A stretch of 64,000 nucleotides of DNA from Escherichia coli. GTDB taxonomy: Bacteria; Pseudomonadota; Gammaproteobacteria; Enterobacterales; Enterobacteriaceae. A model generated the notes under the pieces. The model worked only from the letters and a program-made list of their open reading frames with translations. It made no database searches and had not been told where the DNA came from. Below are positions 58,668-60,133 of this stretch, in pieces (positions within the stretch are counted from its first letter, which is position 1; the number at the start of each line of letters is the position of its first letter). The stretch lies in assembly GCF_003334355.1 (NCBI RefSeq), contig NZ_QOWP01000003.1. One strand, given 5' to 3'. The translations under genes and the position numbers were made by a program.

Positions 58668-58699
58668 CTGATTAAACAGGGAAGTTAAACATTAAAATT

Positions 58700-58798
58700 G
58701 CCTGATGCGCTACGCTTATCAGGCCTACATCGTGCATTGAAATTGAATGGATTTGCAATGAACTGTAGGCCGGATAAGGCGTTTACGCCGCATCCGGC
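58700..58798. repeat. BIME (inverted REP pair) between epmB and yjeJ
   Basis: gcctgatgcgctacgcttatcaggcctaca … tgtaggccggataaggcgtttacgccgcatccggca. Confidence 0.8.
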
Positions 58799-59061
58799 AA
58801 GAGCAACAAACGCAAGTACCGCAACCTGTCATTAAACTGAGAAATTTAATCTTTGCCCGTTGCATAACCTTTAATTATTCATATGCATTGCTGTTGTTAC
58901 TTTTTATATAGCTAACACCAATAATTAACCTTTCTTTTCTGTTTATATAGAGTGAGCACGGCTATTTATGTTATTTTAACAACTATTACTACCAAGCCCA
59001 TTTATCTGGCTTATAAATTAAAATTAATTATTTAATTGAGAAATGGTTAGGGAGAACCTAC

Positions 59062-59931
59062 ATGGCCATAAGCATCAAGGGTGTTAATACCGGTGTTATT
59101 CGCAAGAGTAATAATTTCATTGCACTGGCGCTGAAAATTAAAGAACCTCGCAATAAAGAATCGTTGTTCTTTATGTCTGTCATGGAACTGCGCGACCTGC
59201 TGATTGCGCTGGAAAGTCGTCTGCATCAAAAGCATAAACTGGATGCTGCTGCACGCCTTCAGTATGAGCAAGCTCGCGATAAAGTCATTAAGAAAATGGC
59301 AGAAAACATCCCAGAAATTCTGGTTGATGAGCTTAAAAATGCCGATATTAATCGTCGGGTTAACACGCTGGAACTTACCGATAATCAAGGCGAAAATCTT
59401 ACCTTCGTATTAACGCTACATGACGGTAGCAAATGTGAGTTAGTCGTCAATGAGTTGCAGATTGAAATGCTGGCGCGAGCAATCATTCATGCAATTAATA
59501 ATGCGGAAATGCGTGAACTGGCATTACGTATTACCTCACTGTTAGATTTCCTGCCGTTATATGACGTTGACTGCCAAGAAAATGGCAATCTGGAATATGA
59601 CACCTATTCCCAACCGGAATGGAAACATAACCTGTTCGACCATTATCTGGCGGTGCTTTACCGCTTTAAAGATGAAAGTGGCAAAGAACAATTTAGCGGC
59701 GCAGTGGTGAAAACGCGTGAAGCAACGCCGGGTAAAGAAATAGAGGCGATCACTCGCCGAATGCTTGATTTCAGCCCACGACTGAAAAAACTCGCGGGTG
59801 TGCCATGTCAGGTCTATGTTCGCACCGTAGCGGCGAATAACGCCCAACCGCTAACCCAGGATCAATGCTTACGCGCGCTGCATCACTTACGTGTTCAATC
59901 CACCAGCAAAACTGCACCACAGGCGAAATAA
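59062..59931 (+). CDS. yjeJ: Uncharacterised protein YjeJ
   Basis: 289 aa AT-rich ORF preceded by a very AT-rich 260 bp upstream region. Confidence 0.75.
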   Translation: MAISIKGVNTGVIRKSNNFIALALKIKEPRNKESLFFMSVMELRDLLIALESRLHQKHKLDAAARLQYEQARDKVIKKMAENIPEILVDELKNADINRRVNTLELTDNQGENLTFVLTLHDGSKCELVVNELQIEMLARAIIHAINNAEMRELALRITSLLDFLPLYDVDCQENGNLEYDTYSQPEWKHNLFDHYLAVLYRFKDESGKEQFSGAVVKTREATPGKEIEAITRRMLDFSPRLKKLAGVPCQVYVRTVAANNAQPLTQDQCLRALHHLRVQSTSKTAPQAK

Positions 59932-60000
59932 TCTCATCTTTGCTAATGCGAGGCTGGAGCCATCCAGCCTGAAATGACTGATAACGTGATCGTTGGTCAT

Positions 60001-60100
60001 GCCGGATGCGGCGTAAACGCCTTATCCGGCCTACAAATTCTCAAGCATTCAATCAGTTGCAATGCCTGCTGTAGGCCTGATAAGCGAAGCGCATCAGGCA
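60001..60100. repeat. BIME (inverted REP pair) between yjeJ and yjeI
   Basis: gccggatgcggcgtaaacgccttatccggcctaca … tgtaggcctgataagcgaagcgcatcaggc. Confidence 0.8.
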
Positions 60101-60133
60101 ATAATACGTTTGTCACCCAGCCTCTGGATCACA

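Follow-up and report, generated by a model that had tools for sequence, protein, structure and literature searches.

Results

The yjeJ locus and its product

The DNA analysed here, called the window throughout, is a stretch of 64,000 nucleotides (nt) of the Escherichia coli chromosome, 99.9% identical to strain 720632 across the yjeJ region. Its genes of interest lie in the order frdABCD-ampC-blc-sugE-ecnBA-efp-epmB-yjeJ-yjeI-groLS-yjeH, and our subject is yjeJ, which codes for a protein of 289 amino acids (aa; Table 1). A first-pass annotation made from the sequence alone had described yjeJ as an old, horizontally acquired gene, AT-rich, probably silenced by H-NS and bracketed by repeats. We favour, at a little better than even odds, another view: yjeJ would be a working core gene, related to the last gene of a microcin export cassette that occupies the same place in other Enterobacterales. 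The right-hand neighbour had also been taken to be groL; it is yjeI, a conserved gene convergent with yjeJ, and yjeI anchors the locus in every genus, whether the yjeJ homologue stands alone ("solo") or is linked to a cassette.

YjeJ matches the Pfam family PF15922 ("YjeJ-like") over its full length (E-value 1.3e-174, residues 1–283 on positions 1–283 of a model of 283). Searches against NCBIfam, PADLOC and PHROGs gave no meaningful match, so that PF15922 stays its sole family, and neither the single sequence nor a profile found a relative among solved structures. The structure predicted by AlphaFold (mean predicted local distance difference test, pLDDT, 93) consists of three modules, each a beta-sheet plus a helix; on this model YjeJ is a soluble three-module alpha/beta protein, and no transmembrane segment is predicted (maximum Kyte-Doolittle hydropathy over 19 residues, 1.23). 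Comparison of the model with the PDB by Foldseek gave no significant match (E-values of at least 0.05), the highest probabilities, 0.5–0.77, going to Pur-alpha chains. No internal sequence repeat was found by hhalign on slices of the family alignment (probabilities below 5%).

Distribution, age and selection

yjeJ is present in single copy in all 5,426 complete E. coli genomes, with at least 80% of the gene covered in 5,397. Beyond the species we scanned one genome per species with peptide patterns drawn from an alignment of six sequences, which reached only relatives carrying two such patterns—Klebsiella, Salmonella enterica and others were found by other routes. Of the 45 loci retrieved, 43 had epmB, yjeJ and yjeI together, and all 43, from about 15 genera of Enterobacteriaceae, kept the order blc-sugE-ecnAB-efp-epmB-yjeJ-yjeI-groLS. 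Solo yjeJ is found in Escherichia, Citrobacter, Pseudocitrobacter, Kluyvera, Superficieibacter, Salmonella, Trabulsiella, Intestinirhabdus, Yokenella, Kosakonia, Phytobacter, Pluralibacter and others; in Escherichia, Citrobacter, Kluyvera and other genera it is a single gene between epmB and yjeI with its own AT-rich promoter region and ribosome-binding site. The distribution across Enterobacteriaceae, which had been proposed as a check of foreign origin, is thus not patchy, and no mobility genes lie near yjeJ.

Within Escherichia the ratio of nonsynonymous to synonymous substitution rates (dN/dS) of yjeJ is 0.044–0.061, equal to that of epmB, which denotes strong purifying selection; its dS is 1.3–1.9 times that of its neighbours. 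Between genera solo YjeJ diverges three to four times faster than EpmB: from Pluralibacter to E. coli the identity is 42% for YjeJ, 86% for EpmB, 79% for YjeI and 97% for GroL. As to the proposed old horizontal acquisition, the part that stands is that the gene belongs, in relatives, to an AT-rich accessory module (see below); any acquisition would be far older than the species, the gene being core, syntenic and under purifying selection.

Some loci deserve mention for themselves. In Salmonella, yjeJ looks disrupted: subsp. diarizonae (locus L029; L numbers are our locus labels) has an open reading frame (ORF) of only 97 aa from the start codon, arizonae (L042) gives a partial match, serovars Infantis and Kentucky and subsp. 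houtenae have two separate coding sequences annotated under a full-length tblastn match to YjeJ, and the AlphaFold database (AFDB) holds many short Salmonella "YjeJ" fragments; the gene may be undergoing pseudogenisation there. The epmB-yjeI interval also receives other genes, such as a 572-aa ORF without family match between epmB and yjeJ in Citrobacter youngae (L012:4060–5778) and a methyl-accepting chemotaxis protein gene between yjeJ and yjeI in Kosakonia sp. S29 and Phytobacter (L036:6968–8686; also L038 and L047). Enterobacterial yjeJ loci in records labelled Bacillus coahuilensis, Bacteroidales (a metagenome-assembled genome) and Chryseobacterium sp. (L003, L017 and L045), and AFDB entries attributed to Trichuris trichiura and Thelohanellus kitauei (A0A077ZBR0 and A0A0C2JF96), are almost certainly contamination or mislabelling. 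Matches in phage collections were rejected as phage genes, being chromosomal contigs or tiny unannotated records, and most yjeJ matches on E. coli "plasmids" are mislabelled chromosomes.

Base composition and codon usage

The AT-richness of yjeJ and its upstream region relative to the neighbours was borne out, strongly for the promoter region and moderately for the coding sequence. The G+C (GC) content of the window is 51.1%; that of yjeJ is 45.2% (44.5% at third codon positions, GC3), with 42.3% in its 5' half and 48.0% in its 3' half, to be compared with 52.7% for epmB, 56.2% for yjeI and 53.3% for groL. Among the 60 window genes of at least 300 nt, yjeJ ranks sixth lowest for GC and fifth lowest for GC3 (z-score -1.5 in both cases), so that the AT-richness of its coding sequence is moderate and not extreme. 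The 254 nt upstream of yjeJ are far poorer in GC: only three spots in the 64 kb have 31% or less over a length of 254 nt, and this is one of them; measured over 150 nt, no other intergenic region has so low a minimum (24.7%). Such a composition is typical of H-NS nucleation sites. The GC content of yjeJ is below that of epmB in 40 of the 43 syntenic loci, by a difference that varies in size, and in Kluyvera and Pluralibacter yjeJ matches its flanks.

The atypical codon usage expected of a foreign gene was not found. With the ribosomal, chaperone and elongation factor P genes of the window (highly expressed) as reference, the codon adaptation index of yjeJ is 0.41 (mean 0.43; rank 35 of 60); its Kullback-Leibler distance from the pooled codon usage is below the mean, and its effective number of codons is 45 versus 55–57 in the clearly foreign genes of the window. 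Agreement of both GC and codon usage with the flanks had been named as what would speak against an acquired gene; the outcome is divided, the GC content differing from the flanks and the codon adaptation not.

A microcin export cassette in relatives

Distant YjeJ homologues, 21–35% identical to the E. coli protein, stand in a strikingly constant gene context. One or more microcin precursor genes (one to three ORFs of 68–122 aa) are followed by a gene for an HlyD-type membrane fusion protein (MFP, about 428 aa), by one for a C39-peptidase ATP-binding cassette (ABC) exporter (a peptidase-containing ATP-binding transporter, PCAT, about 705 aa) and, last, by the yjeJ homologue, which begins 12–30 nt after the PCAT gene and codes for 274–294 aa. 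We found this cassette, with both export proteins, in 11 loci: two of Klebsiella pneumoniae (L050, L066), two of Kosakonia radicincitans (L052, L053), one of Budvicia diplopodorum (L054), one of Entomohabitans teleogrylli (L056) and five more (L055, L057, L062, L063 and L064, the last with only a 29-aa ORF at the microcin position); L065 is partial, with a yjeJ homologue beside yjeI and a truncated gene upstream. The small ORFs combine a double-glycine leader with a hydrophobic core rich in glycine, as in MKQLTVFEMEAISGG followed by YSWDFSS in K. pneumoniae and MKTLSVQDMNNVSGA followed by YSWNNW in Kosakonia; these sequence features identify them as class II microcin precursors. Beside the microcin genes of the cassettes there is no small transmembrane ORF. 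A chaperone-usher fimbrial operon usually stands just upstream.

In four of these loci (L050, L056, L062 and L066) the cassette yjeJ is directly beside yjeI, and in the last three the order continues groL-groS-yjeH-fxsA-aspA, which is the position of E. coli yjeJ. In L057 the cassette yjeJ is followed by a GerE-type regulator gene and then by a solo-type yjeJ beside yjeI. The cassette also occurs at unrelated sites, near LysR and UbiD genes in Kosakonia radicincitans and near BON/LysM and major facilitator superfamily (MFS) genes in Budvicia, so that the linkage to YjeJ is not just a property of an insertion hot spot. In Klebsiella, Entomohabitans and relatives the fimbrial genes, the export genes and the yjeJ homologue have 37–47% GC, versus 55–61% for the flanking core genes: in Klebsiella 36.8% for yjeJ, 41.4% for the PCAT gene and 61% for epmB, in Entomohabitans 38–42% for the cassette genes versus 55–59% for yjeI, groL and yjeH.

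Across seven cassettes the mean pairwise identity is 76% for PCAT, 68% for MFP, 46% for the microcin and 32% for YjeJ, which thus diverges fastest. A neighbour-joining tree, built without bootstrap, separates a solo YjeJ clade, a basal cassette group and a clade of Serratia plasmids. On the latter (L048 and L051; 38–57 kb) YjeJ is 24–26% identical to the E. coli protein and its gene neighbours code for ArdR, an SprT-like protein, ParA, H-NS, Hha, a topoisomerase and a DUF2726/HEPN pair. Solo loci with long spacers contain unrelated genes and no exporter remnants.

In the survey of Cole et al. (PMC9746304) almost every assembly of several Klebsiella species has microcin hits, as does the majority of Kosakonia radicincitans assemblies, a frequency that fits a core chromosomal cassette. 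The Kosakonia microcin EN112 (PMC12219008) could not be tied to the cassette: its several cysteines set it apart from the cassette peptide.

Control region, expression and H-NS

In an alignment of 13 yjeJ upstream regions, the motif TATGTTATTTTAAC and the ribosome-binding region GGTTAGGGAGAACC are shared from Escherichia as far as Kosakonia, which makes the AT-rich spacer a conserved control region. The first motif, with its extended -10-like element, is a candidate for the main promoter element or for a regulator site, to judge from its conservation; the published sigma-70 promoter candidate is conserved only within Escherichia (Table 1).

By genomic SELEX (systematic evolution of ligands by exponential enrichment) the epmB-yjeJ spacer is a constitutive site of the RpoD holoenzyme, and in the same in vitro study it is not among the 987 H-NS sites, which include the nearby cadB and adiA spacers (PMC3946193). 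Going by the literature, yjeJ is not silent in standard culture either: the protein was quantified in K-12 grown in lysogeny broth (LB; PMC9508795), and the transcript drops when nitrogen starvation is long and is counted as Nac-regulated (PMC7417836). A protein present in LB and a promoter bound by RNA polymerase contradict complete silencing. FNR chromatin immunoprecipitation on microarrays (ChIP-chip) gave a peak named "yjeI" only in a mutant carrying delta-hns delta-stpA (0.04 to 0.44; PMC3688515, Table S7), in a list that also holds many sites that are not H-NS targets, e.g. secY, fusA and rpoH. The supplements of PMC4288151 make no mention of yjeJ, and the table of PMC4720273, which omits yjeJ, epmB, yjeI and groL, says nothing either way on H-NS.

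Two published observations touch the same DNA. A SELEX peak of a minor-sigma holoenzyme lies inside yjeJ (K-12 coordinate about 4371850; heat-shock sigma section, intensity 4.9; PMC5493296). In K-12 evolved for amoxicillin resistance, five of 27 ampC amplicons or duplicons begin in the yjeJ/epmB spacer and one in the yjeI/yjeJ spacer (PMC12625342); the BIMEs described below or the AT-rich stretch, neither of which is mentioned by the authors, could cause these recurrent starts.

REP pairs flanking yjeJ

Inverted pairs of repetitive extragenic palindromic (REP) sequences had been placed on both sides of yjeJ, and this was confirmed: we located four REP units forming two bacterial interspersed mosaic elements (BIMEs). 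Each consists of two inverted units set head to head in an intergenic spacer, with 34 nt between the arms, and the right BIME is an inverted copy of the left one (arms 86% and 95% complementary). The Z-type REP of the left BIME begins 31 nt past the epmB stop codon. A third BIME of the window, of the same architecture, lies between rlmB and rnr (24044–24106), and nine REP cores in all are spread over five intergenic regions. The REP-bearing yjeJ region matches a median of at least 39 places per E. coli genome. These elements thus resemble the known BIMEs of E. coli in their inverted units of about 30–35 nt, their GTAGGCC(G/T)GATAAG heads, their linker of about 35 nt, their extragenic location, their dozens of copies per genome and their polymorphism among strains; they differ in being inverted copies of each other and in the short direct repeats of each insert.

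The site of the left insert (160 nt, with a 16-nt direct repeat) is empty in E. coli D8, in O157:H7 and in the outgroup E. albertii; the right insert, which interrupts the 3' arm of a hairpin following yjeJ, is lacking in D8 and SC492, and both O157 and E. albertii have it. Evenly spaced rows in the ranking of E. coli matches gave both BIMEs in about 58% of the records, the left only in about 4%, the right only in about 4% and neither in about a third, in agreement with the 3,638 of 5,426 complete genomes in which at least 80% of the region is covered. Outside Escherichia, REPs are found only 3' of yjeJ and only in Citrobacter loci; none was seen at the yjeJ locus in the other sampled genera, including Kluyvera, Salmonella, Trabulsiella, Yokenella, Kosakonia and Pluralibacter. 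From this polymorphism and this distribution the BIMEs are ordinary late arrivals, uninformative on the origin of yjeJ: they were inserted inside Escherichia and Citrobacter, and the bracket that had been taken for a mark of acquisition is a pair of insertion/deletion polymorphisms within Escherichia. A mobile composite element made of the two BIMEs and carrying yjeJ is rejected too, each BIME varying separately among strains while yjeJ stays.

Each insert is edged by a direct repeat, of 16 nt on the left and 7 nt on the right, which is single-copy in the empty alleles. Such an edge, unexpected for REP elements, resembles a duplicated target or else a substrate of precise deletion. The subtype may be BIME-1/RIP, which is defined by a binding consensus for integration host factor (IHF) in the linker, or BIME-2; the right linker, ATTCAATCAGTTG, has one mismatch to the consensus WATCAANNNNTTR, and the left linker three. 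REP elements can act as stabilisers of RNA 3' ends or as insulators. The left BIME would thus probably stabilise or terminate the epmB transcript and shield the yjeJ promoter, and the right one would probably serve the 3' ends of the convergent yjeJ and yjeI. The GC-rich hairpin just 3' of the yjeJ stop codon is likely a 3'-end structure common to both convergent transcripts; the terminator scan did not call it because it has no T-run.

Table 1. Features of the yjeJ region (window coordinates; a dot stands for no strand)
Feature	Position	Strand	Remarks
Left BIME-bearing insertion	58671–58846	.	144-nt body at 58687–58830 between two 16-nt direct repeats
16-nt direct repeat copies of the left insertion	58671–58686; 58831–58846		ATTAAACAGGGAAGTT; ATTAAACTGAGAAATT
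Short (Z-type) REP, left BIME	58699–58728	-	core CTTATCAGGCCTAC at 58715–58728
Linker between REP heads, left BIME	58729–58764	.	about 35 nt; alike in the three BIMEs of the window
Long (Y-type) REP, left BIME	58765–58799	+	core GTAGGCCGGATAAG at 58765–58778
AT-rich upstream/promoter/5' untranslated region of yjeJ	58808–59061	+	30.3% GC; RpoD holoenzyme SELEX peak in the spacer (PMC3946193)
Published candidate sigma-70 promoter	58925–58953	+	TTAACC-17-TAGAGT (PMC3946193, Table 2)
Conserved motif TATGTTATTTTAAC	58967–58980	+	extended -10-like TGtTATTTT at 58969–58977
Conserved ribosome-binding region GGTTAGGGAGAACC	59045–59058	+	
yjeJ coding sequence, 289 aa	59062–59931	+	PF15922 match; RefSeq annotation yjeJ; pLDDT 93; dN/dS 0.04–0.06
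GC-rich hairpin just 3' of the yjeJ stop	59950–59970	.	GAGGCTGGA-gcca-TCCAGCCT, read from the sequence; perfect in BIME-free alleles
Right BIME-bearing insertion	59971–60123	.	153 nt; 7-nt repeat CCAGCCT at 59964–59970 and 60117–60123
Long (Y-type) REP, right BIME	60000–60034	-	
Short (Z-type) REP, right BIME	60071–60100	+	
yjeI, DUF4156 lipoprotein	60134–60487	-	conserved convergent neighbour of yjeJ

Other features of the window

Elsewhere the window differs from strain 720632 at several places. yjfC (13966–15129, minus strand; glutathionylspermidine synthase family) has an internal stop relative to the intact gene of 720632, at 99.5% identity, which could point to a pseudogene or to a sequencing error. 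Between yjfI and rlmB, a segment of 5.1 kb (18133–23270) is missing from the otherwise near-identical 720632. It has genes for a galactarate-dehydratase-like protein, an MFS transporter, a DapA/aldolase-like protein and an IclR-type regulator, all rather AT-rich with a weak codon bias, and of the three spots of the window that are richest in AT, one lies here. Positions 1–1547 also differ, 720632 having there an island with tripartite ATP-independent periplasmic (TRAP) transporter and CoA-transferase genes. At the yjfZ position the window has an AT-rich ORF (736–1530; GC3 35%) with no NCBIfam match, preceded by a stretch of 31% GC or less (560–871); in a published table yjfZ is H-NS-bound in one of three strains. 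Finally groL has 548 codons here and 545 as annotated in 720632, by a 9-nt difference in the C-terminal GGM repeat (about 60625–60670).

Discussion

A probable solo relative of a cassette gene

The reading that we prefer, to which we give a probability of about 0.55, is that yjeJ is a core gene, functional and expressed in E. coli, and that it is a solo relative of a cassette gene: the fourth gene of AT-rich cassettes for class II microcin export, which in other Enterobacterales hold the same site beside yjeI-groLS. Since cassette-linked homologues occupy this yjeI-adjacent site, E. coli yjeJ is most likely a surviving solo relative; its AT-richness, moreover, matches the composition of the cassettes. 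Solo yjeJ would descend from the cassette gene, or be its tandem paralogue, the export genes having been lost; as solo loci hold no exporter remnants, we infer this loss from position and phylogeny.

The cassettes compare well with the known class II microcin clusters, e.g. that of microcin V (cvaC, cvi, cvaA, cvaB). The operons of the relatives have a double-glycine precursor of about 100–120 aa, an MFP of the HlyD/CvaA type and a PCAT, and, as in known systems, they pair a conserved exporter with a hypervariable peptide and one hypervariable partner protein. On the other hand all three defining genes are missing from the E. coli locus, and the product of the fourth cassette gene is soluble, about 280 aa long and encoded after the exporter, where known clusters have a small membrane immunity protein encoded next to the precursor.

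Several observations weigh against this reading or against the role discussed below. By tblastn with the Kosakonia and Budvicia proteins, there is no trace of PCAT and MFP genes in the window or in any solo locus, and the window has no precursor gene. Solo and cassette YjeJs are only about 28–35% identical and fall into separate groups of the unbootstrapped tree, and no microcin cassette genes lie near yjeJ on the Serratia plasmids. The contexts of non-solo YjeJs come from a sample of about 15 members, not from a census. The cassette may equally have been inserted beside a pre-existing yjeJ. In K-12 a delta-yjeJ allele serves as a neutral linked marker (PMC10679819). As to an immunity role, over 21 cassette pairs the identity of YjeJ follows that of PCAT (Spearman 0.82) and MFP (0.72) and not that of the microcin (0.22), and YjeJ, with its solubility, its about 280 aa and its place two genes from the precursor, is unlike known microcin immunity proteins, which are small (at most 216 aa), membrane-embedded and adjacent to the microcin gene (PMC12219008).

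A tentative role for YjeJ

If yjeJ is such a relative, the cytoplasmic YjeJ of the cassettes would act as the specificity partner of the microcin. Our leading guess, and a tentative one, is an immunity-like protector, kept as an orphan in non-producers against the microcins of neighbours. In microcin systems the exporters are conserved and the microcins and immunity proteins highly variable; pipelines that search for immunity proteins drop candidates longer than 250 aa or without transmembrane helices, and their authors allow for larger ones (PMC9746304). The hypervariability of YjeJ compared with the exporter, the lack of a small membrane ORF and these size limits favour together an immunity-like or specificity role. 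What is expected of an immunity protein, i.e. to be encoded in the microcin operon and hypervariable (32% identity versus 76% for PCAT), is seen in the cassette homologues only.

Orphan immunity genes are kept without their toxin at loci of bacteriocins, contact-dependent inhibition, Rhs proteins and type VI secretion systems. Solo yjeJ resembles them in being under purifying selection in non-producers, in diverging fast between lineages and in the presence, in one genome, of cassette and solo-type copies close to each other with a GerE-type regulator gene between; it differs in that the solo and cassette proteins are about 30% identical and that protection by YjeJ is putative. Put more broadly, and with the same reserve, the YjeJ family might be the fourth component, so far overlooked, of a chromosomal class II microcin system that is widespread and makes glycine-rich, "YSW"-type peptides: a soluble three-module immunity or specificity protein, of which E. 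coli and many other Enterobacteriaceae would keep the solo copy as a core orphan immunity gene against the microcins of gut neighbours. These peptides would be nearly core in Klebsiella, and they also occur in Kosakonia.

Other explanations

YjeJ could be a nucleic-acid binder made of PUR/Whirly-like beta-beta-beta-beta-alpha modules, i.e. a regulator or nucleoid factor of the cassette with other targets in E. coli. The high-confidence three-module model, with Pur-alpha chains at the top of the Foldseek probabilities, and the DNA-handling backbone genes that surround the Serratia plasmid copies point this way. However, the Foldseek E-values are not significant, YjeJ has no match to a DNA- or RNA-binding family of Pfam or NCBIfam, and it diverges faster than the microcin itself, which is unusual for a regulator. 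Unlike proteins of the PUR/Whirly-like fold (Pur-alpha, MRP1/2) YjeJ also has no significant sequence support for this fold and no detectable internal sequence repeat. We judge this unlikely.

Not better placed is a cytoplasmic helper in the export or maturation of the pre-microcin, a holdase or an adaptor of the C39-ABC exporter, whose solo copies would have been co-opted for housekeeping. The tight linkage of yjeJ to the 3' end of the exporter gene, the solubility of YjeJ and the correlation of its identity with PCAT and MFP rather than with the microcin are in its favour, but this last correlation may only mirror a shared phylogeny. In addition CvaAB alone secretes class II microcins, novel ones included, in heterologous hosts (PMC12219008), so a helper is not generally needed, and a long survival under purifying selection would be unexpected in lineages that have neither microcin nor exporter.

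The view of the first-pass annotation, that of an old xenogene silenced by H-NS, devoid of current function and delimited by the BIMEs, appears improbable. In common with H-NS-silenced islands, yjeJ has an AT-rich promoter (30% GC over 254 nt) and 5' half (42%), and its homologous cassettes are AT-rich islands, with family members also on plasmids; the FNR peak seen only in a mutant carrying delta-hns delta-stpA is one indirect hint in the same direction, from a list that also contains non-H-NS targets. By contrast yjeJ is core in 5,426 of 5,426 genomes and syntenic across genera, with a dN/dS of 0.04–0.06 and an average codon adaptation, its spacer is flagged by SELEX for RNA polymerase and not for H-NS, its protein is measured in LB, and the BIMEs are younger, polymorphic insertions. 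Finally, that microcin islands merely landed beside an ancestral housekeeping yjeJ because epmB-yjeI is an insertion hot spot is very improbable: lineages do differ in the extra genes at the site (the 572-aa ORF of Citrobacter youngae, the chemoreceptor of Kosakonia sp. S29 and Phytobacter) and L057 has both yjeJ types, but the microcin-MFP-PCAT-YjeJ order and spacing recur off-site in Kosakonia radicincitans and Budvicia, and the cassette YjeJs stand apart from the solo clade in the tree instead of being nested in local solo lineages.

Meaning for E. coli and its relatives

That the locus holds BIMEs and an AT-rich y-gene is already known from annotation and is ordinary. What appears new, on sequence grounds, is the tie between the YjeJ family and class II microcin cassettes; a published description is possible. 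The link is absent from the searched papers that mention yjeJ, and none of the literature covered contains PF15922, the Klebsiella protein accessions or the peptide motif, most subscription journals being outside the search, and the literature under the b-number b4145 consists of unrelated papers only.

For those who scan genomes the case invites caution, AT-richness and flanking repeats having mimicked here a recent silent island, when yjeJ, a core gene, is ancient and the repeats came later and are unrelated to it. yjeJ is among the remaining genes of E. coli K-12 without known function, for which the searched literature offers no context, and its placement in a microcin cassette gives it a specific and cheaply testable hypothesis. 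If YjeJ is indeed protective, the definition of microcin immunity proteins would widen, the coexistence of the near-universal Klebsiella microcins with their producers would be explained, and a core determinant of the competition between E. coli and Klebsiella in the gut would be identified.

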